From a virus (lineage: Duplodnaviria; Heunggongvirae; Uroviricota; Caudoviricetes): 21,826 bases of DNA. Each line of letters starts with the position of its first letter. Within the stretch, counting starts at the first letter, position 1. The notes beneath the pieces were generated by a model that did not search any database, had not been told where the DNA came from, and saw nothing but the letters and a program-made list of their open reading frames with translations. Of the stretch, positions 4,961 to 21,826 are shown piece by piece. The position numbers and the translations under genes were made by a program. The DNA lies in the IMG/VR virus record IMGVR_UViG_2541047848_000001; one strand, 5' to 3'.

Positions 4961-5097
4961 AATCTTAACTACAATATGATTCATTTTGATGATTGTTTCA
5001 TAAGGAACAGTGAAGTAAGATCTAAGAGGAGTTAAATTTTATACAGTATAATCATAATATTGCAGCAAGGTGGTTATAATTGAAAGAATATTTAGAT

Positions 5098-6555
5098 ATG
5101 AATACATCTCATGTAAGAGTTGTTACTCATATGTGTGGGTTCCTGGTTTGGCTCTATAGTCTTTCAATGTTGCCACCAATGGTTGTAGCATTGTTTTATA
5201 AAGAAAAAAGCCTGTTCGTTTTCTTTATAACTTTCGTTATATTTTTTTGCATTGGTGGCGGAGCGTGGTATACAACTAAGAAATCTGGCATTCAATTACG
5301 TACCCGTGATGGGTTTATTATAATTGTAATGTTTTGGATTTTGTTTTCTGTTATTAGTGCATTCCCTTTATGGATTGACTCAGAACTTAATTTAACGTTC
5401 ATTGATGCTCTGTTTGAAGGGGTTTCTGGAATAACAACAACAGGAGCAACTGTAATTGATGATGTTAGTTCATTACCTCGGGCATATTTGTACTATCGGT
5501 CACAGTTAAATTTTATAGGTGGTTTAGGAGTTATTGTTCTGGCGGTTGCTGTATTGCCATTATTGGGTATTGGTGGTACAAAGCTTTATCAGTCAGAAAT
5601 GCCGGGGCCATTTAAGGATGACAAACTCACTCCCCGCCTGGCCGATACGTCACGGACACTGTGGATAACTTATTCTTTATTAGGTATTGCTTGTATTGTC
5701 TGTTATAGACTTGCAGGAATGCCTTTGTTTGATGCTATTTGTCACGGGATTTCCACAGTTTCGCTTGGTGGTTTCTCAACTCATAGCGAGAGTATCGGAT
5801 ATTTTAATAACTATTTGGTTGAGCTGGTGGCTGGTTCTTTTTCCCTGCTATCGGCTTTCAACTTCACTCTTTGGTATATTGTTATTAGCAGGAAAACGAT
5901 AAAACCTTTAATCAGAGATATTGAACTTCGTTTCTTTCTGTTAATAGCCTTAGGGGTGATCATTGTTACCTCTTTCCAGGTCTGGCATATAGGTATGTAT
6001 GACTTGCATGGAAGTTTTATTCATTCGTTTTTTCTTGCCAGCTCCATGCTCACTGATAATGGTTTAGCTACGCAGGATTATGCAAACTGGCCCACGCACA
6101 CGATAGTGTTTTTGCTGTCGTCAAGTTTCTTTGGGGGATGTATAGGTTCAACTTGTGGTGGAATTAAGTCACTTCGATTTCTTATACTTTTCAAACAAAG
6201 CAAACACGAGATAAATCAGCTTTCTCATCCCAGAGCGTTGTTGAGTGTAAATGTAGGAGGGAAGATAGTTACAGATCGTGTAATGAGGTCTGTATGGAGT
6301 TTCTTTTTTCTTTATACTCTCTTCACGGTGTTTTTTATACTGGTGTTAAATGGTATGGGATATGATTTTCTTACATCATTTGCAACAGTGGCTGCATGTA
6401 TTAATAATATGGGATTAGGTTTTGGGGCTACTGCATCGTCATTCGGAGTGCTTAATGACATTGCAAAATATTTAATGTGCATAGCTATGATTCTTGGTCG
6501 CCTTGAAATTTATCCTGTTATTATATTGTTTTCAGGTTTTTTTTGGCGCTCCTAA
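5098..6555 (+). CDS. trkG: Trk-system potassium uptake protein, TrkG/TrkH family
   Basis: Polytopic membrane protein with repeated pore-loop-like GxGG segments. 485 aa from ATG 5098, which is the TrkG length as I recall it. Position right after Rz/Rz1 is the known location of trkG in Rac. AT-rich. An in-frame TTG at 5080 has a better SD (see findings). Confidence 0.85.
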   Translation: MNTSHVRVVTHMCGFLVWLYSLSMLPPMVVALFYKEKSLFVFFITFVIFFCIGGGAWYTTKKSGIQLRTRDGFIIIVMFWILFSVISAFPLWIDSELNLTFIDALFEGVSGITTTGATVIDDVSSLPRAYLYYRSQLNFIGGLGVIVLAVAVLPLLGIGGTKLYQSEMPGPFKDDKLTPRLADTSRTLWITYSLLGIACIVCYRLAGMPLFDAICHGISTVSLGGFSTHSESIGYFNNYLVELVAGSFSLLSAFNFTLWYIVISRKTIKPLIRDIELRFFLLIALGVIIVTSFQVWHIGMYDLHGSFIHSFFLASSMLTDNGLATQDYANWPTHTIVFLLSSSFFGGCIGSTCGGIKSLRFLILFKQSKHEINQLSHPRALLSVNVGGKIVTDRVMRSVWSFFFLYTLFTVFFILVLNGMGYDFLTSFATVAACINNMGLGFGATASSFGVLNDIAKYLMCIAMILGRLEIYPVIILFSGFFWRS

Positions 6556-6641
6556 TATATGGCTGATTTATAATTGTGAGTTTAATATTATATTGACTCA
6601 CTCATTGATCCAATACCTAACTTTACCAGCAACACCTCCGC

Positions 6642-6676
6642 CCCCAGTAGCACTGGCTGCTGGGGTGCGTTTTATT
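6642..6676 (+). terminator. intrinsic terminator downstream of trkG
   Basis: 10-bp stem CCCCAGTAGC/GCTGCTGGGG (one G-U wobble), loop ACTG, then TGCGTTTTATT. Confidence 0.45.
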
Positions 6677-6692
6677 CATAAAGCAAGGCTGT

Positions 6693-7481
6693 ATGAGCGA
6701 GAAATTAAAGATAGTCTATCGCCCATTACAAGAATTGTCACCGTATGCGCACAACGCCAGGACGCACAGTACTGAGCAGGTGGCACAACTGGTAGAAAGT
6801 ATTAAGCAATTCGGCTGGACTAATCCGGTGCTGATTGACGAAAAGGGCGAAATTATTGCGGGTCACGGTCGTGTTATGGCGGCTGAAATGCTCAAAATGG
6901 ATTCTGTTCCGGTCATTGTTCTGTCTGGCCTGACGGATGAGCAGAAAAAGGCGTACCGCCTGGCAGATAATCGCCTACCGATGAATGCTGGCTGGGATGA
7001 AGATCTGTTGCGGATGGAGCTGTCGGACCTAATCAATGCTGATTTTGATGTCTCCCTGACAGACTTCGGCCCGACAGAAATTGATGAACTGTTGACGGAT
7101 GTTTTGCCCGGTACAGGAAATAAGGAGGAGCCGTATACGACGAAAATTGATACGCCTGTTTATGAGCCGTCGGGCGGTAAACCGGATATCAGTGAACTGT
7201 ACGACGATACGAAAACTCAGGAGCTGATCAGCCGGATACGTTCGGCGTCCCTTGAGCCTGATATTGAGAAATTCCTCCTGTGTGCGGCAGAACGTCACAC
7301 GGTGTTTAATTTCAGCAGAATTGCGGACTATTACGCTCATGCCCCCGCTGAAATTCAGTGCCTTTTCGAGGAGTCGGCGCTGGTGATCATTGATTATCAG
7401 CAGGCTATTGAAAATGGATTTGTCCGAATGACGCAGCGCATGGTGGCGATCATGCATAGCGGGGAGGAGGAATATGCGTGA
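6693..7481 (+). CDS. ParB-like nuclease domain (ParB/sulfiredoxin fold) protein
   Basis: 262 aa. N-terminal ParB signature ...IVYRPLQELSPYAHNARTHSTEQVAQLVESIKQFGWTNPVLIDEKGEIIAGHGRVMAA. Acidic C-terminal half. Stop overlaps the start of the next gene. Confidence 0.8.
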   Translation: MSEKLKIVYRPLQELSPYAHNARTHSTEQVAQLVESIKQFGWTNPVLIDEKGEIIAGHGRVMAAEMLKMDSVPVIVLSGLTDEQKKAYRLADNRLPMNAGWDEDLLRMELSDLINADFDVSLTDFGPTEIDELLTDVLPGTGNKEEPYTTKIDTPVYEPSGGKPDISELYDDTKTQELISRIRSASLEPDIEKFLLCAAERHTVFNFSRIADYYAHAPAEIQCLFEESALVIIDYQQAIENGFVRMTQRMVAIMHSGEEEYA

Positions 7482-8124
7482 TGATTTTTGCGCCTTTATT
7501 CTGACTCACGGGCGACCGGACAAAGTTCTGACTTACCGGACGTTGCGTCGTGCTGGCTATACCGGGAAAATTTTTATCGTTGTTGATGATGAAGATAAGA
7601 CACGGCATCAGTACATGGCTGAATTTGGTGAACAGGTGCTGGTATTTTCCAAAGCAGATATTGCCAGTCGTTTTGACGAAGCCGATAATTTTGGTGACCG
7701 CCGCTCAATTTTTTACGCCCGTAATGCCTGTTTCGACCTGGCAAAACTGGTCGGGTGTAAATACTTCATTCAGCTCGATGATGATTATCACGAGTTCCAG
7801 TTTCGGGTGGATCGCAACTATGACCAGGCCTATTTCCCGATAAGGAAACTGGATGCGATCCTTTCTGAAATGCTGGCGTATTACGAATCAATACCCGCGC
7901 TTTCCATCGCTATGTCGCAGGGCGGGGATTTTCTTGGTGACAATGGCGGCCATGCTTCGTGGGTGAAACGCAAGGCAATGAACAGCTTTATCTGTTCGGT
8001 TGATCGACCGTTCTCATTCATGGGGCGCATTAACGAGGATGTGAATACGTACACGAATCTCGGTCGCCGTGGTGAATTGTTTATGACGATCGGTGCTGTC
8101 CAGTTAGGGCAGAAACAGACGTAG
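7474..8124 (+). CDS. DxD-motif nucleotide-sugar-transferase-like (GT-A fold-like) protein; possibly interrupted by an in-frame TAG
   Basis: ATG 7474 lies inside the ParB-like stop region, with SD GGGGAGGAGGAA just upstream. Motifs AFILTHGRPD...IFIVVDDED...IQLDDDY resemble the N-terminal strand, DD and DxD elements of GT-A/nucleotidyltransferase folds. An ORF in the same frame resumes 15 nt after the TAG (8140..8337). Confidence 0.5.
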   Translation: MRDDFCAFILTHGRPDKVLTYRTLRRAGYTGKIFIVVDDEDKTRHQYMAEFGEQVLVFSKADIASRFDEADNFGDRRSIFYARNACFDLAKLVGCKYFIQLDDDYHEFQFRVDRNYDQAYFPIRKLDAILSEMLAYYESIPALSIAMSQGGDFLGDNGGHASWVKRKAMNSFICSVDRPFSFMGRINEDVNTYTNLGRRGELFMTIGAVQLGQKQT

Positions 8125-8340
8125 AAAAACAGCGGCGGAATGACCGAGCTGTATCTGGATTCCGGGACCTACGTTAAAAGTTTTTATTCCGTCATGTATG
8201 CGCCGTCGTGCGTAAAAATCTCACTGATGGGCGCCAGCCATAAACGCATTCACCATCAGGTCACCTGGAACAACGCTGCAGTAAAAATCCTTCACGAAAA
8301 ATACAGGAAGAAGACACCCTGCATATTAATGGGGTGACAA

Positions 8341-8592
8341 ATGATTCCGTATTCGAAAGTCGAGTCTCTGGCAGCGTGCCGGATGACTGCACAACAAATC
8401 GCTGACGTACTGGATGTTGATCTGAACCGACTGAAAGAAAATCGGGAAGCAATGACAAATTTTTACGCGTCCATCCGTAAGGGCAGAGCGAAAGGTGAAG
8501 CCGAGCTACGGGCGGCATTGTTTAAGCTTGCCAGAAAAGGGGATGCCTTTGCCCTGCGCGAACTACTCAGGGTGGATAAAAATCAGGACTAA
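8341..8592 (+). CDS. small basic, probably DNA-binding protein upstream of the packaging genes (function unknown)
   Basis: 83 aa, MIPYSKVESLAACRMTAQQIADVLDVDLNRL... has an HTH-like segment. Tightly packed before the putative terS. Confidence 0.4.
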   Translation: MIPYSKVESLAACRMTAQQIADVLDVDLNRLKENREAMTNFYASIRKGRAKGEAELRAALFKLARKGDAFALRELLRVDKNQD

Positions 8593-8595
8593 CTG

Positions 8596-9690
8596 ATGAG
8601 CAGACCGGACTGGGGGGCGTTGCAGCAGGAGTATATTGCTGAATACACCCGCTCCGGTATATCTCCGGTGGCATGGTGTGAAGCAAGGGGACTGAATTAC
8701 GCAACAGCCCGTCGTTACATCAAAAAACCTCCGAAAAATGCGCAGACAGAAATGCGCAAAACTGCGCAAAAAAGTGCGCAGAAAAAATCTGCGCAGACTG
8801 CACAAAAGCGGAACGGAAAATCTCAGGAAAAAAAGCCAGTATCCGATGCGTACCTGAATGAGGGCGATGCGGAAGAAATTTCGTTCTGTCCCGATGAATT
8901 CGGCGTTTCTGACCAGCAGGCGAAATTCGCAATGCTGGTTGCCCAGGGGAAAAAACTCGTTGAGGCATATCGCCTGGCAGGATACGAGTCAGAGGGGAAT
9001 GCGGCCTACGTAACCGCCAGCCAGCTCCTAAGAAATCCTAAGGTTTTTCGTGCTATCAGCTACTTCCGCAATCAGTACCAGAAACGCTATACCGCAGACC
9101 TGGATTTACTGGTGAGTCAGTTGATGGCCATTGTCCAGGCCGACCCCAATCAGTTGGCACAATTTCGCCGTGTTAACTGCCGTTATTGCTGGGGCGAGAA
9201 TCATCACTACCAGTGGCGCGATATAGCAGAATTCGATAAGGCAGCGGCGCAGGCCTCCAGAGATGGCAAACCCGAGCCGGAATATGGTGGCCTTGGCTTT
9301 GTTGATAACGCCATACCCAATCCGGACTGCCCGAAGTGCTGCGGTGAGGGAACGGGGCAGCTTTATATGGCTGATACCACTCTGCTTGATGGGGATGCGC
9401 GGCAATTATATGCAGGGGCAAAGCTCGGAAAATTTGGTGTTGAGATCCTGCTGGAGGATAAGGCTGCCGCCCGGCGTGAATTGTTGCGTTTGCTTGCTGC
9501 TGGCGGGGCTTTATGTGCAGATAAGCGGCTACAGGAACTGGAAATTGAACGGCGCAGAATGGAAAACCAGAAGCTGCGCAAAGAGATCGAAACGGTGGAG
9601 GATAATGAACATCCCCAACCTGTTGCGATCAATATTAATGTGGTTGATGCCAGAGTAAGGAGTGATGAAGATGATCTCTCCGACGCTTAA
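8596..9690 (+). CDS. putative terminase small subunit / DNA-packaging recognition protein
   Basis: 364 aa directly upstream of, and overlapping, terL. N-terminal HTH-like segment (GISPVAWCEARGLNYATARRYIKK), basic low-complexity AQK linker, Cys cluster CRYC...CPKCC, C-terminal coiled coil. Assigned by position and architecture only. Confidence 0.5.
   Translation: MSRPDWGALQQEYIAEYTRSGISPVAWCEARGLNYATARRYIKKPPKNAQTEMRKTAQKSAQKKSAQTAQKRNGKSQEKKPVSDAYLNEGDAEEISFCPDEFGVSDQQAKFAMLVAQGKKLVEAYRLAGYESEGNAAYVTASQLLRNPKVFRAISYFRNQYQKRYTADLDLLVSQLMAIVQADPNQLAQFRRVNCRYCWGENHHYQWRDIAEFDKAAAQASRDGKPEPEYGGLGFVDNAIPNPDCPKCCGEGTGQLYMADTTLLDGDARQLYAGAKLGKFGVEILLEDKAAARRELLRLLAAGGALCADKRLQELEIERRRMENQKLRKEIETVEDNEHPQPVAININVVDARVRSDEDDLSDA
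8739..8804 (+). repeat. array of five palindromic TGCGCA hexamers (plus one TGCACA) at 10-15 bp spacing inside the putative terS
   Basis: TGCGCA at 8739, 8753, 8763, 8775, 8790; TGCACA at 8799. Read directly from the sequence. Confidence 0.7.
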
Positions 9691-10972
9691 TGTGCCTCAG
9701 GCGCGATTTCTTTCAATGCCCCACAAATTTAAAGCCTATGTCGCTGGTTTTGGCTCGGGTAAAACATGGATTGGGTGTGGTGGCATATGCAAGGGGATTT
9801 GGGAACATCCTGGTATAAATCAGGGATATTTTGCGCCAACGTATCCCCAAATTCGCGATATTTTTTACCCTACAGTGGAAGAAGTTGCTGCTGACTGGGG
9901 ATTGAATGTAAAAATTAATGAGGGAAATAAAGAGGTTCATTTTTATTACGGACGTCAGTATCGGGGAACCACTATCTGCAGATCGATGGAGAAGCCGCAA
10001 ACGATCGTCGGTTTCAAAATTGGTAATGCGCTGGTGGATGAACTGGACATTTTGCCGAAGGAAAAAGCCAGAACAGCGTGGCGCAAGATAATTGCGCGTA
10101 TGCGTTATAAGGTTGATGGACTTCGCAACGGTATTGACGTTACAACCACGCCGGAAGGATTCAAATTTGTCTACGAGCAGTTTGTTAAAGCCGTGCGTGA
10201 AAAAACAGAGCTGGCCTCACTGTATGGTCTGGTGCAGGCATCTACTTTCGATAATGAAAAGAACCTGCCAGCAGATTACATTCCTTCGCTTCTTGAGTCA
10301 TACCCTCCAGAGCTGATTAAAGCCTATCTTCGAGGACAGTTTACTAACCTGACAAGTGGTACTGTTTACCATCAGTTTGACCGGAAACTGAATAATTGCG
10401 AAGAAGTGGAGCAGCCAGGGGAGCCGATTTATATTGGGATGGATTTTAACGTTGGAAAGATGGCGGGGGTCGTCCATGTACTGCGTTTGGGGCTTCCATG
10501 TGCGGTAACTGAAATCATCAATGCCTACGATACACCGGATATGATCCGCATCATTAAAGAACGCTTCTGGCTGTATGACGGGAATGATTACCGGAAAGTG
10601 AGGGAGATTTATATTTATCCAGATGCTTCCGGAGATTCCAGAAAATCAAGTAACGCAAGTACGACGGATATAGCCCAGCTTAAGCAGGCTGGTTTTAACG
10701 TTGTGGTGAACAGCTCGAACCCGCCAGTAAAAGATCGCGTTAACTCAATGAATGCAATGTTCTGCAATGCCAATGGCGAACGTCGCTATAAAGTTAATGT
10801 GAAGCGTTGTCCGGTATATGCCGAATCTCTGGAGCAACAGGTCTGGGATGATAAGGGGGAGCCTGATAAAAAATCAGGCAACGATCACCCGAATGATGCC
10901 GGAGGCTATTTCATCGTTAAGCAATTCCCTATTATCAAACCGACCGGAAGAGTCACATCACTTCGGATTTAA
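9671..10972 (+). CDS. terminase large subunit
   Basis: Walker A GFGSGKT near the N-terminus. C-terminal nuclease-like acidic motifs (IGMDFN..., YPDASGDS). SD TAAGGAG at 9656-9662 favours ATG 9671. ORF-track start 9662 is an upstream GTG. Confidence 0.9.
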   Translation: MISPTLNVPQARFLSMPHKFKAYVAGFGSGKTWIGCGGICKGIWEHPGINQGYFAPTYPQIRDIFYPTVEEVAADWGLNVKINEGNKEVHFYYGRQYRGTTICRSMEKPQTIVGFKIGNALVDELDILPKEKARTAWRKIIARMRYKVDGLRNGIDVTTTPEGFKFVYEQFVKAVREKTELASLYGLVQASTFDNEKNLPADYIPSLLESYPPELIKAYLRGQFTNLTSGTVYHQFDRKLNNCEEVEQPGEPIYIGMDFNVGKMAGVVHVLRLGLPCAVTEIINAYDTPDMIRIIKERFWLYDGNDYRKVREIYIYPDASGDSRKSSNASTTDIAQLKQAGFNVVVNSSNPPVKDRVNSMNAMFCNANGERRYKVNVKRCPVYAESLEQQVWDDKGEPDKKSGNDHPNDAGGYFIVKQFPIIKPTGRVTSLRI

Positions 10973-10974
10973 TT

Positions 10975-12381
10975 ATGGCTGATATATCAACACCCAACCT
11001 CGACTATAACGATATGCTGGAGGCGTGGGATATTAACGACGCACTGATGGGCGGTACGCTTGAAATGCGCAGGCAGGGGGAAAATTATCTCCCAAAATGG
11101 CCTAACGAAGATGAAGACGCTTATAAAAAACGCCTGTCTGTGGCTACGCTACTTCCTGTGTATGAAGAAAGCATTAAGCAAAATATTGGACGCATATTTG
11201 CAGAGCCGACAGTATTGAGTGAGGAAACGCCGGAAAAAATCAGGGAATATGCAGAAAATATCGACATGGAGGGGAGCCGACTGGATGTGTGGGCGCAGCA
11301 ATTTTTCAGCCTCGCATTTCAGTATGGTGTGGCACATGCGCTGGTGGACTATCCACGAACGGATATGAAGGAGATCCGGACAAAAGCCGATGAAAATGCG
11401 GCTGGTGGTCGCCCATACGTTACGATGCTGAATCCACGCCAGGTTATTGGATGGAAATCGAAAGTTGAAAAAGGGAAAGTTGTTCTTACTGATTTGCGTA
11501 TAAAAGAAGTCATCATTGTTGATGGTGATGATTTCGGGCAGAAGAAGGTGGAGCAGATCCGCCATATTATGCCCCGTTGCGTTGAAATTTATCGACGCAG
11601 CGAAGGTACTAATGGCGAATCTGTCTGGACGCTTCACGAGTCATGGAATACCAGCCGTGATGATATTCCTCTGGTAACACTGTATACGAAGAAAACAGGG
11701 TTTATGCGTGGTACACCGCCATTGCTTAATCTTGGCTTGCTGAATATCAAGCACTGGCAAAGCCAGAGCGAGCAGGACAATATTCTTCATGTTGCCCGCG
11801 TCCCATTGCTGGTGGCCTACGGGCTGGACAGGAATGAAGAACTGACGGTTGGTGCATCCACCGCTACGATTTTTGAGGACAGAACAAAAAATGGCCTCGA
11901 ATATGTTGAACATAGTGGGGCAGCGATAGAATCTGGCGAAACATCACTGGAGAAGCTGGAAAATCAGATGCGTCATGCCGGCGCTAAACTTCTGCGGGCT
12001 GAAAATACATCCACCAAATCTGTTGATCAGACTAATGAAGAGCGGATGCAGGAAAACTCGCCGCTTTATACAATGGCGAACTCCCTCGAAGATGCCCTCG
12101 ATAATATTCTCCAGATAATGGCGGAATGGATCGGAGAGAGTTGCGGCGGCAATGTGGATGTGCGCACTGAACTGGATGTATCTGCCCAGGTGTTTGACTC
12201 ATCCTCCGCGCTGGCTGTTCAGTCATTGCGTCAGGGCGGTGATATACGTCAGATTGATGCGGTTCGGGTGTTGCAGGCGTTGAAATTTATCGATCAGGAT
12301 TCCCGTCCAGAGGAAGTGATCGATGAATTAAAAAATCAGAGTGTAATGCTGATGGAAATCAATGATGCAAACCGTGAATGA
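10975..12381 (+). CDS. portal protein
   Basis: 468 aa immediately after terL; size and position are typical. Acidic C-terminus. Confidence 0.8.
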   Translation: MADISTPNLDYNDMLEAWDINDALMGGTLEMRRQGENYLPKWPNEDEDAYKKRLSVATLLPVYEESIKQNIGRIFAEPTVLSEETPEKIREYAENIDMEGSRLDVWAQQFFSLAFQYGVAHALVDYPRTDMKEIRTKADENAAGGRPYVTMLNPRQVIGWKSKVEKGKVVLTDLRIKEVIIVDGDDFGQKKVEQIRHIMPRCVEIYRRSEGTNGESVWTLHESWNTSRDDIPLVTLYTKKTGFMRGTPPLLNLGLLNIKHWQSQSEQDNILHVARVPLLVAYGLDRNEELTVGASTATIFEDRTKNGLEYVEHSGAAIESGETSLEKLENQMRHAGAKLLRAENTSTKSVDQTNEERMQENSPLYTMANSLEDALDNILQIMAEWIGESCGGNVDVRTELDVSAQVFDSSSALAVQSLRQGGDIRQIDAVRVLQALKFIDQDSRPEEVIDELKNQSVMLMEINDANRE

Positions 12382-13477
12382 ACGGCTGCGTGATGAATCA
12401 ATTGCTCATGCAGTCTGGATATCTCGCTATAGCACTGGTGTGGCTGCCAGAATGGTGAAAACACTGAATGACAGCGATGCGGAGCTTACAGCTCGCCTGC
12501 TGGTGGCACTGGACAGCCTCGATCCAGGTAGTTTCACCGTTACGCGCCTGGAGTCACTTCTGGCGAGTGTCAGAGAGGTTAACCGCGCTGCTATTAACAG
12601 CATGTTTACCAGGCTCTCCGGAGAGCTGAACGAGCTGGCAGTTTATGAGGCTGGTTATCAGTTAAGTCTGTTTGATTCTCTGCTACCTGATTTTGTTGCT
12701 GATGTTCACCCTCTGGTTGGTATCTCACCTGATGCACTTTATGCCGCGGCAATGGCGCGACCATTCCAGGGACGACTGCTCAGTGAGTGGGCCTCAGATC
12801 TTGAGGCGGATCGGCTCAGACGCATAACAAATACGGTGCGTCAGGGTTTTTTGTTGGGGGATACCAATGAGCAGATCGCAAGAAAAATTCGGGGACATGT
12901 CAGTAAGGGATTTCAGGATGGTGCATTGCAGATGAGCCGGGCTAATGCGGCCAGCATTGCAAAAACAGCGGTTGGACATCTTGCTGCTACTGCCCGTGAG
13001 AGTTTTGCCAGCGCGAATAATGATTTGATTAAGGGTAAGCAATGGTTATCAACGCTTGATAATCGTACTACGCCACAATGTCGAATCAGGGATCGCCTCA
13101 AATATACGCTGAATAATAAACCTGTAGGTCACAGCGTGCCTTATTTGCAGGGGCCGGGAAAAATTCATTTCTGCTGCCGCTCAACGGAAACGTTCATTCT
13201 GAAATCAGCGAAGGAACTGGGTATTGATGTTCGTGATATTTCCCCGGCTGAGCGGGCCAGCATGGATGGCGTGGTGGCCGGAGATACAACCTACAGGGAA
13301 TGGTTTTTGCGTCAGCCTTACACCAGACAAAAACAGATTGTGGGGGAAACCCGGGCAAAGCTGATTCGGGATGGCGGTATGTCGCCAGATGAATTTTACA
13401 CCGATAAAGGCGAATGGCTGACGCTGAAGCAACTCCGTGAGCGTGATGCACAGGTATTCAGAAAAGCAGGGATTTAA
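12362..13477 (+). CDS. head morphogenesis protein (MuF / SPP1 gp7-like minor head protein)
   Basis: 371 aa following the portal and overlapping its 3' end. Domain organisation resembles the MuF family. Confidence 0.75.
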   Translation: MMQTVNERLRDESIAHAVWISRYSTGVAARMVKTLNDSDAELTARLLVALDSLDPGSFTVTRLESLLASVREVNRAAINSMFTRLSGELNELAVYEAGYQLSLFDSLLPDFVADVHPLVGISPDALYAAAMARPFQGRLLSEWASDLEADRLRRITNTVRQGFLLGDTNEQIARKIRGHVSKGFQDGALQMSRANAASIAKTAVGHLAATARESFASANNDLIKGKQWLSTLDNRTTPQCRIRDRLKYTLNNKPVGHSVPYLQGPGKIHFCCRSTETFILKSAKELGIDVRDISPAERASMDGVVAGDTTYREWFLRQPYTRQKQIVGETRAKLIRDGGMSPDEFYTDKGEWLTLKQLRERDAQVFRKAGI

Positions 13478-13496
13478 ATAAATCATTTATTACAAC

Positions 13497-13524
13497 AGGC
13501 TACCTTCGGGTGGCCTTTTTTATT
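13497..13524 (+). terminator. intrinsic terminator after the head morphogenesis gene
   Basis: GGCTACC / UUCG-type loop / GGTGGCC stem (one G-U) followed by TTTTTTATT. Confidence 0.55.
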
Positions 13525-13581
13525 GCTGCGATCCGGATGGTGAGCAGCGTAACTGTCGGAAGACTTAAACCAGGTACTAAT

Positions 13582-14346
13582 ATGAAACTGAAAACGGTCG
13601 AGATTAACGGAAAACAATACGCAGAAATTGATACTGCTGGCCTGCCAGTTTATGTGCACGACGATGGTAAAGAAATCGGCTTCGATGCACCGCTGGCGAT
13701 AAAAAAAATTACAGAGCTTAATGGCGAGGCAAAAAATCATCGCCTGGCTAAAGAAGCTGCAGAGGAAAAACTGGCTAAGTTTGCCGCTATCGAAGACCCG
13801 AAGAAGGCGATCGAGGCACTGGAAATGCTGTCAAAAATCGACCAGAAAAAGCTGATCGATGCGGGACAGGTTGACCAGGTTAAGGCAGAAATTACGAAAA
13901 ATTTTCAGCAGCAATTAGATGAAGAAAAGCAACGCTCTCAGATGCTGGAGACGCAGCTTTACGATTCTATGATTGGCGGTAGTTTTGCGGGTTCAAAATA
14001 TATTGCCGATAAAATTGCGATCCCGGCAGATTTATTACAAGCCCGCTTCGGGCAGGCATTCAAAGTGGAAGAAGGGAAGATCGTTGCTTATGACGCTTCC
14101 GGCAACAAAATTTATTCCCGCGCGAAGCCTGGCGAACTGGCGCAGTTTGATGAGGCGCTGGAGTTCCTCGTCGAAAATTACCCTCAGAAAGACTACATCC
14201 TGAAAGCCAGTGGCAACAATGGCGGCGGCTCCCGTCCGACACAGCATGATATTGGTCAGAAAACGATGAAACGCTCTGCTTTTGATGCACTGGATGTTGC
14301 AGGTAAGCAAAACGCATTGAAAGACGGTATCACAATCGTTGATTAA
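13582..14346 (+). CDS. capsid scaffolding protein
   Basis: Alpha-helical, charged, coiled-coil-rich protein directly upstream of the coat gene. Start chosen as ATG 13582 (MKLKTVEING...); the ORF-track start 13510 lies within the upstream terminator. Confidence 0.6.
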   Translation: MKLKTVEINGKQYAEIDTAGLPVYVHDDGKEIGFDAPLAIKKITELNGEAKNHRLAKEAAEEKLAKFAAIEDPKKAIEALEMLSKIDQKKLIDAGQVDQVKAEITKNFQQQLDEEKQRSQMLETQLYDSMIGGSFAGSKYIADKIAIPADLLQARFGQAFKVEEGKIVAYDASGNKIYSRAKPGELAQFDEALEFLVENYPQKDYILKASGNNGGGSRPTQHDIGQKTMKRSAFDALDVAGKQNALKDGITIVD

Positions 14347-14444
14347 CACATTTGTCAGCTTCCGGATGGGAGCTGGTGTCAGGGCTGGATAGCTCATTAC
14401 TCCATCTATTCACAATTACGCAAATTTTTAAGGAATATTTAATT

Positions 14445-15584
14445 ATGGCTGGAAATACCCTGACCGGGTTGATCCCGACTATTTATACCGCCCTGGATGT
14501 TGTATCCCGTGAGCAGGTAGGTTTTATCCCTGCGGTAGCAAAAAACGCAAAAGCTGACGCCGCAGCAAAAGATCAGACGGTAACCGCGCCAGTTGCGCCT
14601 GAGGCGAAAACCGAAGATATCGTACCGGGGCCGTCAGCTCCGAATACCGGTGATCAAAATATTGGCACTGTTGATGTAAAAATTACTAAATCCAAAATGG
14701 CACCGGTTAAATGGAATGGTGAAGAACAACTGGCTCTTGGCCCTTCAGGGACTTACAACACCATTCTGGCTGATCAGTTCAAGCAGGCTTTTCGCGCCCT
14801 TGCAAACGAGGTTGAGGCTGATCTTGGTGCGTTGTATTTCGGTGCTTCCCGCGCCGTGGGAACCGCAGGGACAACGCCGTTTGGTGTTAAAGATGATCTT
14901 TCTGATGCTGCTCTGGCTCGTCAGGTTCTGGAGGATAACGGCGCACCGACAACCGATCTGCAGATGGTGCTTGGCTCCACTGCCATTGCTAATTTGCGCG
15001 GAAAACAGTCTGTATTGTTTAAAGTGAATGAATCCGGCACTGAACAGCTACTGCGTGAGGGCGTGTTGGGGCGTCTGGAGGGATTCAATATTCACAGTTC
15101 GGCAGGTGTGAAACGAGCGCCAAAGGTTGCTGCAACTGGTTATCTCGTGAATGGAGAGAAAAAAGAAGGCGATGTTCTTATTTCCATTGATACTGGTTCG
15201 GGGAGTATTTCTGCAGGTCAGATTGTTACGTTCGCTGGTGATCCGAATCAGTATGTTGTGGCAGCAGCGACCAGCAATCTGATTACTCTTGCAGCGCCCG
15301 GACTGCGTCAGGATCTGGCCGATGATACTGCCATCACAGTTGTTGGGGCCTTTACTGCAAATATGGCGTTTGATCGCAACGCGTTTCTGCTGGCATCCCG
15401 TACTCCGGCAATGCCGGAAGGTGGCGATAATGCTGATGATGTAATGAATGTTACGGACCCGATTTCAGGGATTACGTTCCAGATTGCACTGTATCGTCAG
15501 TATCGCCAGGTGCGCTATGAAGTTGGACTGGCATGGGGTGTTTCATCAGTGAAGCCGGCACATGGTTGTCTGATTCTTGGTTAA
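14445..15584 (+). CDS. major capsid (coat) protein, P22-coat-like
   Basis: About 380 aa from ATG 14445 (SD AAGGAA upstream). Positioned after the scaffold. Followed by a strong terminator, as expected for a highly expressed coat gene. Confidence 0.75.
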   Translation: MAGNTLTGLIPTIYTALDVVSREQVGFIPAVAKNAKADAAAKDQTVTAPVAPEAKTEDIVPGPSAPNTGDQNIGTVDVKITKSKMAPVKWNGEEQLALGPSGTYNTILADQFKQAFRALANEVEADLGALYFGASRAVGTAGTTPFGVKDDLSDAALARQVLEDNGAPTTDLQMVLGSTAIANLRGKQSVLFKVNESGTEQLLREGVLGRLEGFNIHSSAGVKRAPKVAATGYLVNGEKKEGDVLISIDTGSGSISAGQIVTFAGDPNQYVVAAATSNLITLAAPGLRQDLADDTAITVVGAFTANMAFDRNAFLLASRTPAMPEGGDNADDVMNVTDPISGITFQIALYRQYRQVRYEVGLAWGVSSVKPAHGCLILG

Positions 15585-15593
15585 ACATTCAAA

Positions 15594-15616
15594 CGGGGCT
15601 TCGGCCCCATTTTTAA
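15594..15616 (+). terminator. intrinsic terminator after the coat gene
   Basis: GGGGC-TTCG-GCCCC hairpin followed by ATTTTTAA. Confidence 0.6.
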
Positions 15617-15626
15617 TGGGGGGCAT

Positions 15627-15803
15627 ATGGCCGGATTAACTAAAGAGCAAAGAGCACAGCGTGAAGCCGCACAAAAAACGCAAATTGAGTTAGTGGTTAT
15701 GGTGACCGATTATCAGATGTTTCCCGGCGCACCAACTATCGCTAATGTTCATCCTGATGAAGTTGACAACTGGAAGGCTATGGGCTGGAAAACTCAGGAG
15801 TAA
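15627..15803 (+). CDS. small hypothetical protein (58 aa)
   Basis: ATG 15627 to TAA 15801-15803, MAGLTKEQRAQREAAQKTQIELVVMVTDYQMFPGAPTIANVHPDEVDNWKAMGWKTQE. Fills the gap between coat and connector genes. Below the ORF-track cutoff. Confidence 0.35.
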   Translation: MAGLTKEQRAQREAAQKTQIELVVMVTDYQMFPGAPTIANVHPDEVDNWKAMGWKTQE

Positions 15804-15806
15804 CAC

Positions 15807-16202
15807 ATGATCACTTACGTGACCTGTGATGACGTTGATAATGCGTTTGGGAACGCCTGGACGAGTGAGAACGCTAAAAATAAAGCTGTTTTAATGGCTA
15901 ATGCCTGGCTTAATGGTTTCAACCTGAAAATTAACCCATCCCGTATTCCGGAAGAGGTAAAACTTGCGGGAGCGTATGCAGCCAGAATTGCCTCATTCGG
16001 TAAGTTGTTTCAGCAGAAAAATGATTCTGGCGTTGTTATCAGTAAAGCCGTGTCGGCTGACGGGGTCAGTGTATCGAAATCATTTTCTGAGTTGCCAGCA
16101 AACAGCACTGCATTGCTTGAACCCGATTTACAGCTTGCGATAGCACTGCTGAAACCGTACGGACTTAGTCGCTCACAAGTCAGGGTTGTGAGGGGGGGAT
16201 AA
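15807..16202 (+). CDS. head-tail connector / head completion protein (by position)
   Basis: 131 aa with SD AGGAG upstream. First of four tightly packed small genes between coat and major tail. Confidence 0.45.
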   Translation: MITYVTCDDVDNAFGNAWTSENAKNKAVLMANAWLNGFNLKINPSRIPEEVKLAGAYAARIASFGKLFQQKNDSGVVISKAVSADGVSVSKSFSELPANSTALLEPDLQLAIALLKPYGLSRSQVRVVRGG

Positions 16203-16585
16203 TGGGGCTTCGTGAAGAGATTCAGTCAGAGGTTGCCGCTGCTTTTGATGAGGATTTAGCGGACGCCGTGAGTGATATTTCTGGTTCTTACGTTACGCAC
16301 CGGCACTGGGATCCTGTGACGGAAACTGGCGGCGAATCCACCGCAATCTATACCGGGCGAGGCGTGTTGACACGTTATAAGCTGGGCAGAATTGATGGGA
16401 TTAATATTTTGCATGGTGACCTTAAATTAACCGCTCTGGTATGCGAGGTTACGGATAAACCAGCTGTCGACCATATTATTGAGATTTATGATCCTGTATC
16501 AAGGCAGTTACAACGATACGAGGTAATTACAGCAAGTGTAGATCCTTCCGCATCAGTTTACTCTATCCAGTTAAGGAGAGCGTAA
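16202..16585 (+). CDS. head-tail joining protein (by position)
   Basis: 127 aa. Start overlaps the previous stop (TAATG). Confidence 0.45.
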   Translation: MGLREEIQSEVAAAFDEDLADAVSDISGSYVTHRHWDPVTETGGESTAIYTGRGVLTRYKLGRIDGINILHGDLKLTALVCEVTDKPAVDHIIEIYDPVSRQLQRYEVITASVDPSASVYSIQLRRA

Positions 16586-16966
16586 ATGGCAAAGGCATGG
16601 GATATAGAACCGTCAATATTTGCCGGGATGATTGAGGAAGATGTAGGGCTGAAGATTCGCTACATCGCTATTCAGATTCTTACTGCTATTGATATTGCTG
16701 CTCCGGTTGATACCGGACGTTTCAGAAATAACAACCTGGTGTCGTTACAGCATCCCGATTTTGGTATATCTGATAACGTGGATCCGAACGGTACGATTGC
16801 TGTTCAGCGTGGGATCGGGGTTATTTCGAAAGCTGCAAATTACGGGGTTATTTATATCCAAAATAACCTTCCTTATGCAGAGGCTCTTGAAAACGGTCAT
16901 TCACAACAAGCGCCAACTGGCGTGTATGCCAACGCTTTTCATGGTGTTTTACAGGCTTACAAATGA
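16586..16966 (+). CDS. neck / head-tail joining protein (HK97 gp10-like, by position)
   Basis: 126 aa in the contiguous connector gene series. Confidence 0.45.
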   Translation: MAKAWDIEPSIFAGMIEEDVGLKIRYIAIQILTAIDIAAPVDTGRFRNNNLVSLQHPDFGISDNVDPNGTIAVQRGIGVISKAANYGVIYIQNNLPYAEALENGHSQQAPTGVYANAFHGVLQAYK

Positions 16967-17355
16967 AGTTTACTGAAATCAGAAATACGGTTATTTCCAG
17001 AATGACGGCACAGACGATTATTGATGGAAAAGACGTATTGTATCCGAACGGGCCAACGTTCGATCCTTCCGGTAAGTTAATCTGGGCGCGGTTAAGTAAT
17101 ATTCCCGGGCAGGCTGGAGTTAATGAAATTGGCGCGGGGCCGGTTGTTTATCGCACGGGGATAATCATTATTCAGTTATTTGTCCCCGCAGGTTCTGGTT
17201 CAAAACTCATTACTGAGACAGCCGATAAATTGCGGGAACTGTTTGAGTTTCAGGATGACGATCGTCTCAGTTACCAGGCTGTTTCCTCAATAGCCGTCGG
17301 CGAAAAGAATGGCTGGTTCCAGCTTAATCTTCAAATTCCATATCACGCGCTCTAG
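16963..17355 (+). CDS. tail completion / tail terminator protein (by position)
   Basis: 130 aa. Overlapping start (ATGA). Directly precedes the major tail gene. Confidence 0.45.
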   Translation: MKFTEIRNTVISRMTAQTIIDGKDVLYPNGPTFDPSGKLIWARLSNIPGQAGVNEIGAGPVVYRTGIIIIQLFVPAGSGSKLITETADKLRELFEFQDDDRLSYQAVSSIAVGEKNGWFQLNLQIPYHAL

Positions 17356-17381
17356 CGCAATTAATGACATAGGAGGCTCCT

Positions 17382-18344
17382 GTGAGTTCAGGTGCAAAGG
17401 TTATCTCGGCATTTATCCGGGAGACAGTTGCAGGCACTACGCCAGCAAGTGGTGACTGGAGTTTATTAAAACGCACAAGCTGGGGAGTAAAACCCACCCA
17501 GAATAAAGGCGAAAATAATGAGATTGGTGGCTCCCGGATGGCTCAGGGGGCGACGCCTGGCACTGTGGATGTCGGCGGTGATGTTGGTACCAAATTTCGC
17601 TGGGGTCAACATGATGATTTTCTTGCATCCTGTTTCGGCGCGGAATGGTCAGGCGATTCTCTGACAATGGGGAATGAGCGAATAACATTTTCTCTGGCGA
17701 CCTATGCGTCCGATGTCGGAATTGCCTCTGTCGTCAGAGGAGCGCAGGTTGGCTCATGGAAAATGCAGATCCCTAACGACGGCGATATTACAGCGACCGT
17801 AACCTTTGCCGGGCTGGGCTGGGAATCAAAGGCCGATGATACGAATTTTATCAAAGGCGAACCTGTGGATAGTGCAGGAAAGTTACGCTATTCGTTTAAG
17901 GCGGTTTCAGCAGTAAGCCTGAATGGTGTTGCCGGAGGTAACGGTTTTTGTATCGACAGTTTTGATATTCAGTTCGATAACAAACTCCAGACACAGCGTT
18001 GTATCGGGACTGGCTCGCCTTATGCAGGAGCAAATATTCCGACTACTTTTACACCGTCCGGTACGGTGACGCTTTCATGGTCTAAAGCCGCGTGGGAAAT
18101 CTGGAGTAAAACACTGACTGGAGAAACAGTTCCGTTCAGCTTCACGCTTTCGAATGGAGAGGGGGCATACACTTTCAGTTTCCCGAAGGTTCAGGTGTCA
18201 GGTGAATGGCCTGATGGGGGTAATACTGACATTATCCAGGTTCAATTGAGCATTACCGCAGCAGATGAAGCACCTACGATAACCAGAAAAAAATGCTCCC
18301 CGACTGCCGTGATCGCAAAAGCCAGTGCTGATGCGATTAGTTGA
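17382..18344 (+). CDS. major tail (tube) protein
   Basis: 320 aa, GTG start with SD AGGAGG 5 nt upstream. Immediately upstream of the G/GT chaperone and tape measure genes. Confidence 0.7.
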   Translation: MSSGAKVISAFIRETVAGTTPASGDWSLLKRTSWGVKPTQNKGENNEIGGSRMAQGATPGTVDVGGDVGTKFRWGQHDDFLASCFGAEWSGDSLTMGNERITFSLATYASDVGIASVVRGAQVGSWKMQIPNDGDITATVTFAGLGWESKADDTNFIKGEPVDSAGKLRYSFKAVSAVSLNGVAGGNGFCIDSFDIQFDNKLQTQRCIGTGSPYAGANIPTTFTPSGTVTLSWSKAAWEIWSKTLTGETVPFSFTLSNGEGAYTFSFPKVQVSGEWPDGGNTDIIQVQLSITAADEAPTITRKKCSPTAVIAKASADAIS

Positions 18345-18356
18345 TTTTCCGTTATT

Positions 18357-18383
18357 CCCCCTGTGGTACTGCACTACAGGGGG
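18357..18383 (+). other. perfect 11-bp-stem hairpin without a U-tract between major tail and chaperone genes
   Basis: CCCCCTGTGGT / loop ACTGC / ACTACAGGGGG, one G-U pair; followed by ACGCATTGAATG rather than a T-run. Confidence 0.5.
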
Positions 18384-18392
18384 ACGCATTGA

Positions 18393-18854
18393 ATGAGGTT
18401 ATGGATGTTTATTCTTAATCAGAAAATTATCATCGGTGGAGAACGCTGGTTTACGCCAATGAAGGACTTAAAACCTGTAGACGGGTTAAAACTGTTGGTG
18501 GCAAGCAGCGATAACGATCAGTATCGCTCCCGTAATGCATTAATCCGTCGTCACATTGAGAAAATGGATGCCAGTTTGCACGTCGGAACGAAGGAGTTTG
18601 ATATTTCAAAGGTTTCCGAGGTAGATTCTGTTGATGATTTACTCATTGATAATGCTGCTCGTTATCTGCTGAAAGACTGGAAAGGGGTTGGTGAACTGGT
18701 TAATGGTGCTGAGGTTGCACTGGAATATACGCCAGAACGAGGGATCGCGCTGCTTAAGCAGAATCCAGAGTTGTACTGGCAGATCCTTGCAGAAGCAGCC
18801 AGCATCGCCCAGGGTAAAGAGCAGCAGAAGCAGGATACGATAAAAAAGCCATAG
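18393..18854 (+). CDS. tail assembly chaperone (gpG-like), zero-frame product
   Basis: Acidic protein just upstream of the tape measure gene, ending ...QDTIKKP-TAG. True start uncertain; ATG 18460 (MKDLKPVDG...) is an alternative. Confidence 0.65.
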   Translation: MRLWMFILNQKIIIGGERWFTPMKDLKPVDGLKLLVASSDNDQYRSRNALIRRHIEKMDASLHVGTKEFDISKVSEVDSVDDLLIDNAARYLLKDWKGVGELVNGAEVALEYTPERGIALLKQNPELYWQILAEAASIAQGKEQQKQDTIKKP

Positions 18855-19162
18855 CCGCCCAGCGGTGGTTATCGGAGTTCGGGGGAGAAAGGGGGGAAAA
18901 GGCAAGATGGAAGCGAGAAAAACTCAGGTTGCCACCGATACCGGAACCAGAAATAGACCCGGTGCTTAAGGAATTGTTGTACGCCTATTCGGTAATATCC
19001 CGTGCCCGACGTTATGCTGGAATGACCGGGGTGCCTTTGCCTTTATCTCTGACAGAGATAAATGAATATTTAGCCACTCATCCGGTATTGATTGAGCGCG
19101 ATGAATTTGAAGCAGTGATCTTTGCACTGGATGACCAGTATTTTCAGGAGCAGTGTGTGTAG
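18393..19162 (+). CDS. tail assembly chaperone gpGT-like fusion made by -1 programmed frameshift at A-AAA-AAG (18842-18848)
   Basis: The -1 frame is open from 18818 to 19162. The slippery heptamer A AAA AAG sits 4 nt before the zero-frame stop. The ORF-track 18929 ORF is the downstream part of this frame. Confidence 0.6.
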
Positions 19163-19282
19163 TTGTTAATTACGTACACTCTGTTACAGAGATGTGATGG
19201 TGTCTTTAATTAAATCGATGATGCTCCTGGAGAAAAGCATTGCGTGGCCTCGTAATCGCTATATCTACTATTATGTCGCCTG

Positions 19283-19309
19283 AAACCCACTTCGCGGTGG
19301 GTTTTTTGT
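19283..19309 (+). terminator. intrinsic terminator between the chaperone and tape measure genes
   Basis: AAACCCAC / TTCGCG / GTGGGTTT followed by TTTTTTG. Confidence 0.55.
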
Positions 19310-19327
19310 TGTCAGGAGTTTTAATAA

Positions 19328-21760
19328 ATGGCAGAGCAAACCTCGCGTCTCGCAATAATTATTGATAGCACTGGAGCGAAAAATAATGCTGACAATCTGA
19401 CCTCCTCATTAGTCAAAATGACGCAGGCTGGGGAAACTGCTGCAAATAGCGCAGGGAAAGTGACTAAGGCAACAGAAGATGAGAAGAACGCGCTCGCAAA
19501 ATTAAAAGCAGCTATTGATCCAGTTGGTGCCGCAATTGATACTGTCGGTCGACGCTATTCTGAATTAAAGAAATTTTTCGATAAAGGGCTTATTGATAAA
19601 GAAGAATATGAATTTCTTGTCCGTAAACTTAATGAAACCACAGAGGAATTGAGCGGGGTTGCGCAAGCGCAGAGAGAAGCCGAGAAGGCCGGAAAACTTG
19701 CTGCCGCCCAGCAGGAAGCGCAGGCTCAGGCCTTTCAAAGAATGCTGGACAAGATCGACCCTCTGGCTGCGGCGCTAAGAAATCTTGAACAACAGCATGA
19801 TGAACTTAATGCTGCGTTTGCATCCGGGAAAATAAATGGTTCTCAGTTTGAGAATTATAGCCGAAAAATACAGGAAACACGGCGAGAGCTTACCGGAGAG
19901 GCTCAGGCAGAGCGAGAAGCAGCAAAAGCGCATGATGAACAGGTTGTTGCTTTGCAACGTCTGATTGCTCAACTTGATCCTGTCGGAACTGCTTTTAATC
20001 GTCTGGTAGAACAACAGAAACAGCTCAATGAAGCAAAAGCTAAGGGGATGCTTTCTCCTGAAATGTATGAGGAGCTTTCTGGAAAACTTCGTGCTATGCG
20101 GAGTGAGCTTGAGGTTACTCAATCACAATTAAGCAAAACCGGAATGTCGGCAAAACAAACGGCTTTTGCTATGCGCATGTTGCCTGCACAAATGACGGAT
20201 ATTGTTGTTGGGTTGTCCACTGGTCAGTCGCCATTTATGGTGTTAATGCAGCAGGGCGGCCAGCTAAAAGATATGTTCGGTGGGATTGGCCCGGCGATCA
20301 AAGGTGTAGGTTCTTATGTGCTGGGATTAATTAATCCTTTTACCCTGGCCGCAGCAGCCGTTGGGGTCTTAGGACTGGCTTACTATAAAGGCTCTCAGGA
20401 GCAGGACGAATTTAATAAATCTCTTATTCTTACCGGAAATCAGTTGGGGACAACCAGCGGGCAATTGGGCGATATAGCTCAACGTGCCGGGAATGCGGCT
20501 GATTCGACAACTGGTGCTGCGGCGGCAGTATTAAATCAGCTTGTGCGTTCGGGAAAGGTAGCGAGCAGTTCGCTGGAGCAAGTGACGACAGCGATAGTAA
20601 AAACGAGCGAAGTAACAGGAATATCAACCGAACAACTGGTTAATGACTTCAATGAAATTGCAAAGGATCCTGTCAGTGCCATATCAAAACTTAATGATCA
20701 GTACCATTTTCTGACACTTGCGACTTATAACCAGATTAAGGCGCTACAGGATGAAGGGAACCAGCAGGAGGCCGCCCGCATTGCGACAGAAGAATACTCA
20801 TCCTCAATGATCCAGCGCACCAACCAGATTAAAGAAAATCTTGGTTATCTTGAGACTGCATGGAAAGCTGTCGCAGACTCCGCAAAATGGGCATGGGATT
20901 CCATGCTGGATATTGGCCGTGAGGCCTCCCTTGATCAAAAAATCTCAGATGTTCTCCGTCAAATTGATGAAATAGAAAAAAATACCCGACCCGGAGTTTT
21001 CGGGTTAGGTGGCATTGGAGATGGCGGAGCTCAAAATAAAAGGCTGGCACGATTAAAGCAGCAATTGGGCGTACTTCAAGCAGAAAAAATTGCTCAGGAC
21101 GTACTAAATTCATCAATAAACGATTACAACAAGCGACAACAGGAAGGAATTGAACTCAGACAGAGAGCAGATGCCTTTTCAAAACAATATCAGACCCGGG
21201 AGCAGCAGAGAGCTAGTGAACTTGCAAAACTGGAAAAGCTAAAGAATCAGTATTCAAAGGAAGAATATAATAATCTTATCGCTCAAATAAATGAGCGTTA
21301 TAAAGATCCAAAGCAACCAAAGGCGAAAGGTTATTCTGATGATGCAGCCCAACGAATGATTGATCATCTGAATCAACAGAATGCGTTACTAAGTTCACAA
21401 GCTGAGTTGACCGTTAAATTAAGTTCCTCTGAACAGGAACTGGTTAAGTGGCGTCAGCGGATTGCCGACCTAGAGTCACGACCATCATCGAAATTAACCC
21501 AGGATCAGAAATCGCTTCTCTTACACCGGGAAGAAATAACCGCGTTGATGGAGAAAAATGTTGCGATTGAAAAGAATAACAGGCTAATCAAGGAATCCGC
21601 CGAAATAACAGCATGGCGTGATTCATTGCAGGCTTCGATTGATAATCGTCAGCAGGGGTATGATATTCAGATTGCTGGTTATGGGGTTGGCGATAAAAAT
21701 CAGCAACGCCAGCAGGAATTACTGCGGATTGAAGGTGATGCTGCCAACTTACTGATTTAG
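19328..21760 (+). CDS. tail tape measure protein; 3' end disrupted by IS1 (last 8 codons and the stop are IS1-derived)
   Basis: SD AGGAG upstream. Long coiled-coil N-terminal region with tandem repeats, then a hydrophobic Gly-rich segment ([31 protein letters not shown]...) typical of tape measure proteins. The ORF continues into the IS1 left end at 21734 and stops at the TAG inside the IS1 terminal repeat. Confidence 0.75.
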
Positions 21761-21826
21761 TGTATGATGGTGTTTTTGAGGTGCTCCAGTGGCTTCTGTT
21801 TCTATCAGCTGTCCCTCCTGTTCAGC
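21734..21826 (+). mobile_element. IS1 left end (IRL GGTGATGCTGCCAACTTACTGAT...), truncated by the window edge
   Basis: Sequence from 21734 to the window end matches the IS1 left terminus and the start of insA as I recall them, including ...GTGCTCCAGTGGCTTCTGTTTCTATCAGCTGTCCCTCCTGTTCAGC. Confidence 0.85.
21789..21826 (+). CDS. insA: IS1 transposase InsA, N-terminal codons (3' end outside window)
   Basis: GTG 21789 followed by codons for ASVSISCPSCSA, the InsA N-terminus. Confidence 0.7.
   Translation, partial: MASVSISCPSCS

Follow-up and report, generated by a model that had tools for sequence, protein, structure and literature searches.

The stretch of DNA analysed here, referred to as the window, is 21,826 nucleotides long (IMG/VR record IMGVR_UViG_2541047848_000001) and ends within a copy of IS1 joined to a truncated phage tail tape measure gene. 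The window stops in the middle of the element because the contig from which it was taken stops there. The features at this end of the window are the following.

19328 to 21733, plus strand: the first 802 codons of a phage tail tape measure gene of the Rac type (Pfam TMP_2 and TMP_4, phrog_24).
21733 to 21734, no strand: breakpoint between tape measure nucleotide 2406 and IS1 nucleotide 1, very probably the left border of a 13,975 bp deletion relative to E. coli 63-2.
21734 to 21826, plus strand: left end of IS1, nucleotides 1-93 of the 768 bp element, from identity to IS1 of phage P1.
21734 to 21756, plus strand: left terminal inverted repeat of IS1, GGTGATGCTGCCAACTTACTGAT, aligned to the 'terminal IR of IS1' of P1 (AF234173.1).
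21734 to 21760, plus strand: eight IS1-encoded codons, GDAANLLI, and the TAG which closes the tape measure reading frame, from translation.
21789 to 21826, plus strand: 5' end of insA with a GTG start, the first 12 codons being VASVSISCPSCS, from translation and the P1 annotation.

The open reading frame from 19328 to 21760 encodes 810 amino acids, comprising 802 native tape measure codons followed by GDAANLLI, and terminates with the TAG at 21758-21760. It matched the Pfam profiles TMP_2 (8e-82, 274 bits, cutoff 30.2) and TMP_4 (1e-24, 86 bits, cutoff 27) and the PHROGs family phrog_24 (3e-249, 832 bits). Near-identical intact genes of 3234 nt, encoding 1077 amino acids, are found in E. coli 63-2 (L015 18029-21262) and in L73 (L002 2029-5262), and the window gene was 99.98-100% identical to both up to nucleotide 2406. 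Homology to uninterrupted tape measure genes stopped exactly at 21733, hence the gene is not full length and 275 of the 1077 codons, those for the C-terminus, are absent. On these alignments it is classed as a pseudogene fragment. A sequence-only reading of the window had described a tape measure frame running eight codons into IS1 and stopping at a TAG within the inverted repeat. The eight codons and the stop were as described, while the TAG occupies IS1 nucleotides 25-27, just past the inner edge of the 23-24 bp repeat annotated in P1. A natural end of the gene at 21733, for which the same reading had allowed, was not seen, the relatives without IS1 running 275 codons further. Upstream lie the tail tube gene (17382-18344) and the tail assembly chaperone gene (18393-18854, with a -1 frame extending to 19162). 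The chaperone gene is of the ydaY type (phrog_313, 18393-19162 with the extension) and has A_AAA_AAG at 18842-18848, two codons before its stop. Its -1 frame is open from 18818 to 19162 and matches phrog_1189 and, weakly, PF23812. From its sequence, the site looks like a programmed -1 frameshift of the lambda G/GT type.

The last 93 bp of the window, 21734-21826, showed 100% identity to the IS1 of phage P1 records, as proposed for comparison in the sequence-only reading, and were also 100% identical to the IS1 copies of E. coli MB46, LR-29-1, ET734 and F1053. The mobile element annotated as 'insertion sequence:IS1' in P1 (AF234173.1) has its first base opposite 21734 in the alignment, and the left terminal inverted repeat of the window aligned base for base with this annotated start. 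According to the P1 annotation insA starts 55 nt inside the element, which corresponds to 21789 (about nucleotide 56), and translation of 21789-21824 gave the N-terminus of InsA. A fragment of 24 amino acids called at the insA position on contig L004 matched Pfam PF03811 (Zn_ribbon_InsA). The presence of the IS1 left inverted repeat and the insA start from 21734 is thus confirmed by the P1 alignment, by the translation and by PF03811.

The DNA beyond the window was examined on other assemblies. The exact 810 amino acid product was found on 11 contigs, and every short-read contig breaks inside IS1. Besides KE701179.1, the assemblies encoding it include GCA_036604905.1, GCA_932909995.1, SRR8310844 and ERR4578529. 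Linkage across IS1 comes from one scaffold join with a gap of Ns, in KE701179.1 (L003; GCA_000459555.1), which is the only assembly to bridge the element. This scaffold is 100% identical to window 9328-21826. Its left contig ends at the last base of the window and a gap of 495 N begins at the next base. To the right of the gap, KE701179.1 12995-13087 is a stretch that matches the terminal 93 bp of the MB46 IS1 without a difference. It includes the right terminal inverted repeat, ending ...GGAGTCACTACC, which lies outside the window. A 25 amino acid fragment to the right of the gap matched PF03400 (DDE_Tnp_IS1), the interior of IS1 being inside the 495 N gap. The sequence downstream of the window therefore does continue as IS1, since its right end is present across the gap. 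The two contigs flanking the gap (12499-12995) each reach exactly 93 bp into IS1, which is probably a k-mer effect of the assembler and would explain why the window stops in the middle of the element. After the right end of IS1 the scaffold continues with TTGTTTGTGTTATG..., which is the first 115 nt (38 codons) of dgcX, a diguanylate cyclase gene borne by the prophage. IS1 abuts dgcX at codon 38, 755 bp from the attR core. The motif GCTTTTTTATACTAA, which we take to be the lambda att core (attR), lies at KE701179.1 13843-13857 and is followed by ybhB, bioA, bioBFCD and uvrB. The remainder of the tape measure gene was not found past IS1 on KE701179.1.

The complete genome of E. coli 63-2 (NZ_CP050040.1, L015) contains the same prophage without the deletion, with 3 mismatches in 17,707 bp relative to window 4027-21733 (99.98% identity). 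In 63-2 the tape measure gene is followed by a gpM-like gene, L, K (a C40 peptidase), I, J, lom and the tail fibre and assembly genes, then by an invertible fibre segment, a diguanylate cyclase gene (33193-34524, minus strand), ybhB and bioA; the distal tail genes of this series are deleted in the window lineage. The last base before IS1, 21733, corresponds to L015 20434, and homology on KE701179.1 resumes after IS1 at L015 34410. Thus KE701179.1 1-12406 equals L015 8029-20434 and 13088-19112 equals L015 34410-40434, the latter with 99.97% identity. Relative to 63-2, 13,975 bp (L015 20435-34409, equal to NZ_CP050040.1 2,987,847-3,001,821) are missing. The missing DNA comprises the final 275 codons of the tape measure gene, tail tip genes like those for gpM, L, K, I and J, lom, the gene for the side tail fibre with those for its assembly, the invertible fibre segment and a 1217 nt portion of dgcX. 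The 5' 269 nt of the cyclase gene are 100% identical to the gene of O104:H4 strains. Richter et al. placed dgcX next to lambdoid prophage DNA at attB (PMC4287979), and the position of the cyclase gene in 63-2 matches that location. Through the one scaffold join, then, a single IS1 is found at a novel joint, both flanks are collinear with 63-2 and the intervening DNA is absent. G+C content near the breakpoint was 26% in the dgcX 5' region versus 44% at the tape measure site.

No target-site duplication was present at the IS1 of the window and KE701179.1. The absence of an 8-9 bp duplication argues against a simple insertion but not against the identity of the element as IS1. Deletions associated with IS elements lack target duplications (PMC11708052). 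Simple IS1 insertions in the same gene of other strains served as controls and the flanks compare as follows.

Window/KE701179.1: CGGATTGAA, IS1, TTGTTTGTG; duplication none; distal half of the gene absent.
LR-29-1: simple IS1 insertion at tape measure nucleotide 1920; duplication 8-9 bp; distal half present.
ETEC1730: simple IS1 insertion at nucleotide 1929; duplication 9 bp; distal half present.
F1053: simple IS1 insertion at nucleotide 2038; duplication 9 bp; distal half present.
ET734: simple IS1 insertion at nucleotide 2159; duplication 8 bp; distal half present.

These insertions (LR-29-1 with EEC_W5, ETEC1730 with ETEC17xx, F1053 and ET734) resemble the window case in lying in the same gene and orientation, 250-490 bp upstream, and in truncating the reading frame. 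They differ from it in having duplications of their own and in keeping the distal half of the gene and the downstream tail genes. The simple copies occupy L001 4005-4772, L017 2502-3269, L018 2509-3276 and L016 2688-3454, all from complete E. coli genomes. The four independent insertions fall within 240 bp, at nucleotides 1920-2159, and the window site is at nucleotide 2406; the stretch from 1920 to 2159 may be a warm spot for IS1 within the part of the gene which the search covered. A bias in the orientation of IS1 in the tape measure gene was considered and rejected, since the search joins same-strand pieces only.

From the sequence comparison, it is highly likely that the IS1 of the window forms the border of a 13,975 bp IS1-associated deletion and is not a simple insertion. 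An insertion of IS1 into the tape measure gene, as first proposed from the window, therefore stands as regards the truncation abutting IS1 but not as regards a simple insertion, as there is no duplication and 13,975 bp are missing. Likewise, the expectation that the downstream sequence would give the right end of IS1, an 8-9 bp duplication and the rest of the tape measure gene was borne out for the right end, whereas in place of the other two the sequence runs into the truncated dgcX, attR, ybhB and bioA. A simple insertion would read IS1 and then CGGATTGAA-CATGGATATAAC..., that is, the target duplication followed by the distal tape measure gene, and a contig from such a precursor would start with the right end of IS1 and CGGATTGAACATGG. 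It would have to be supposed that a second IS1 lies in dgcX and that the scaffolder misjoined two contigs ending in IS1, skipping a contig of 14 kb. This is improbable in our view, even though IS1 insertions in the same tape measure gene are common among other strains, IS1 in or near the 5' end of dgcX is also common, and all contigs end inside IS1 so that the two sides are linked by scaffolding evidence only. The IS1 span on KE701179.1 is 93 + 495 + 93 = 681 bp, using the gap estimate, compared with 768 bp for one IS1, and there is therefore no room for an extra 14 kb. The gap estimate is not a round number and fits one IS1 with 582 nt unsequenced, not 14 kb plus two IS1 elements. A unique contig of 14 kb would also need to have been dropped. 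Some of the 11 contigs encoding the 810 amino acid product could nevertheless come from strains which still have the simple insertion.

A resolved example of such an IS1-bounded deletion, with almost the same right site, was found in the complete genome of MB46 (NZ_CP073958.1), and this too argues against a misjoined simple insertion in the window lineage. MB46 has the same prophage with terL, IS1 and the truncated dgcX in that order and with no target duplication. Its IS1 (L011 5326-6093) is identical to that of the window and KE701179.1 at both 93 bp ends. The MB46 prophage shares with the window lineage its location at att-lambda and the orientation and variant ends of IS1. The left junction in MB46 is in the large terminase gene (window-equivalent 10853) with a loss of ∼24.9 kb so that, unlike in the window lineage, the genes for the portal, the head and the proximal tail are missing as well. 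Base-level comparison placed its right junction 24 bp from that of KE701179.1, and because the right junctions differ by 24 bp the two deletions are independent. A right junction in common, or a nested deletion from a shared IS1, was rejected on the same grounds. IS1 in or near the 5' end of dgcX was also observed in YD786, EC05, TUM2820 and NCTC11023. Two independent deletions with right ends 24 bp apart in the dgcX 5' end, together with IS1 in either the same tape measure region or the 5' region of dgcX in several more lineages, raise the idea that the tail module and dgcX are lost together recurrently and under selection rather than at random. We regard this as highly doubtful. If it were so, selection might favour an immobilised prophage that keeps the immunity region (seen in MB46 but not within the window) and the trkG, lipocalin and YbgA morons, or might equally favour silencing of the very highly expressed cyclase DgcX.

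Returning to the deletion itself, the most likely route, inferred from the joint, has two steps. IS1 would first have inserted in the usual way in either the tape measure gene or dgcX, and intramolecular replicative transposition targeting the site in the other gene would then have led to an adjacent deletion. Such a deletion would keep one copy of IS1 and leave no target duplication. This route is favoured because it needs fewer events and because it is how IS1 classically behaves in this interval of the chromosome. For the gal region of E. coli, Reif and Saedler reportedly described deletions promoted by IS1 in 1975. RecA-dependent homologous recombination between two IS1 copies that had inserted in direct orientation, the first into the tape measure gene and the second into dgcX, would excise the same 14 kb and yield exactly one IS1 between unrelated 9-mers; as the origin of the deletion we consider it possible but rather unlikely. 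Both breakpoints are in regions where independent simple IS1 insertions occur elsewhere, and recombination between IS copies is a frequent cause of missing target duplications (PMC11708052). It does, however, demand three events, namely two insertions in the same orientation and the recombination, versus two for the adjacent deletion, and no genome with either precursor insertion was found in the collections searched. There was no sign of a hybrid element, both 93 bp ends matching the MB46-type IS1, though the left end does not discriminate between variants because its 93 bp are identical in most of them.

The search for a precursor used 5,426 complete E. coli genomes and collections of genome and metagenome contigs. 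The exact tape measure/IS1 junction gave no one-piece match in the 5,426 genomes, and the two- and three-piece matches to this query were IS1 insertions elsewhere in the tape measure gene. A composite query for a precursor with IS1 at the dgcX breakpoint and a duplication of TTGTTTGTG likewise gave no one-piece match in these genomes, IS1 being found at nearby sites in three genomes only. Exact-pattern searches of the genome and metagenome contig collections gave zero matches for the left junction, for the right junction and for the right end of IS1 followed by the duplication and the distal tape measure gene. Thus a precursor with IS1 at either endpoint and the DNA intact was found neither in the 5,426 complete E. 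coli genomes nor in the contig collections, and absence from these collections does not exclude its existence.

A larger rearrangement was also weighed, for instance an inversion between IS1 copies joining a prophage at the Rac site to the bio region. Strains such as L73 do have near-identical late genes in prophages at the Rac site, on the uspF-ompN side, which first suggested that the tape measure gene and bio might normally lie far from each other. However, the complete genomes of 63-2 and MB46 carry the prophage wholly between ybhC-int and ybhB-bioA, and it is 99.97-99.98% identical to the window with the trkG moron included. In addition, the tape measure gene and dgcX lie 14 kb apart in the same orientation and therefore no inversion is needed. 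We hold a rearrangement of this kind to be extremely unlikely, and an IS1-mediated inversion from the Rac site to bio was rejected, the prophage of 63-2 and MB46 being entirely within att-lambda.

The prophage occupies the lambda attachment site, with ybhC on one side and ybhB-bio on the other, and its gene content marks it as a mosaic lambdoid prophage combining a lambda-type int and att with Rac-type late genes. In MB46 the order is ybhC, int, xis, a lambda-like early region, Q, lipocalin, YbgA, lysis genes, trkG and the Rac-type late genes. Likely cargo genes in the window are a lipocalin family gene (840-1364, minus strand), a YbgA family gene (1557-2516, plus strand) and trkG (5098-6555, plus strand), a potassium transporter gene placed, as in Rac, after the lysis cassette and before the packaging genes. 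The gene at 7474-8405, flanked by the ParB-like and small terminase genes, is interrupted in frame by a stop at codon 217 and carries a frameshift in its 3' part. It is intact (310 amino acids) in ON032529.1, and in 63-2 and MB46 RefSeq annotates it as a pseudogene. At least one more lesion is therefore present in the late region. In 63-2 there is an IS3-family insertion at L015 1500-2662 next to a shortened lysozyme gene which is intact in the window, and in MB46 an IS3-family insertion at L014 10886-12099 in the lipocalin gene, again intact in the window. On these sequences, sister prophage lineages appear to be decaying at different places. The record ON032529.1 ('Salmonella phage SPF_0923', L019) starts in the lysis region and contains the host genes sitABCD, uspF, ompN and part of nifJ (28143-35262). 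It looks like a predicted Rac-site prophage segment rather than a packaged phage genome.

In lambda, tail initiation depends on J, I, L, K and M together with the tape measure protein and its chaperones. Of this set only a truncated tape measure protein and the chaperones remain in the window lineage. Tail assembly is not expected because the C-terminus of the tape measure protein and all tip and fibre genes are gone and, by analogy with lambda, the prophage is judged to be tail-defective, more thoroughly so than had been proposed from the window. The claim that functional tails probably cannot be made is upheld by the cut after codon 802 of 1077 and by the absence of the distal tail genes. 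The lysis, packaging and head genes were said to look intact, and the lysis, terminase, portal and capsid reading frames are indeed full length compared with RefSeq-annotated relatives. The holin, lysozyme, Rz, both terminase subunits, portal and minor head protein have the lengths annotated in 63-2, as do the scaffold-like protein, capsid, connectors, tail terminator and tail tube. Induction is predicted to give, at best, lysis and DNA-filled tailless heads. From the sequence of the joint dgcX is considered to be inactivated by the deletion. IS1 had been regarded as a substrate for rearrangement; it is indeed associated with a rearrangement, though one which seems to have occurred already. 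Annotations should describe the prophage as defective, with all distal tail genes missing rather than only the tape measure gene split, and should list the strain as dgcX-negative. More generally, where an IS end coincides with a contig boundary, the other side needs to be checked before a simple insertion is assumed.

The case is one of a known element and a known process, the decay, driven by IS1, of an E. coli prophage in the gal-bio interval. The prophage resembles Rac of K-12 in its late genes (RefSeq names ydaY and trkG), with Rac-type fibre names in L73, but differs from it in sitting at att-lambda with a lambda-like early region. It resembles the gpH region of lambda in having a frameshifted chaperone gene, a tape measure gene and the order M-L-K-I-J-lom-stf-tfa, while a lambda-type prophage at the same site, in ECCHD184, has a tape measure protein of 853 amino acids compared with 1077 here. 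With IS1 (768 bp; insA, insB'; IS1 family) the window shares the canonical left inverted repeat and insA at nucleotide 56. Unlike a simple insertion, the copy in the window lineage lacks the 8-9 bp target duplication, and its interior lies inside the scaffold gap. The IS1 deletions of the gal region and the IS150 deletions of the long-term evolution experiment (PMC11708052) have a copy of the IS at the border and no duplication. As in such IS-promoted adjacent deletions, the flanks in the window case are collinear with an undeleted reference. The window case even falls within the gal-bio interval. It differs from the classical deletions in that its two-step history is inferred, recombination between two IS1 copies giving the same product.
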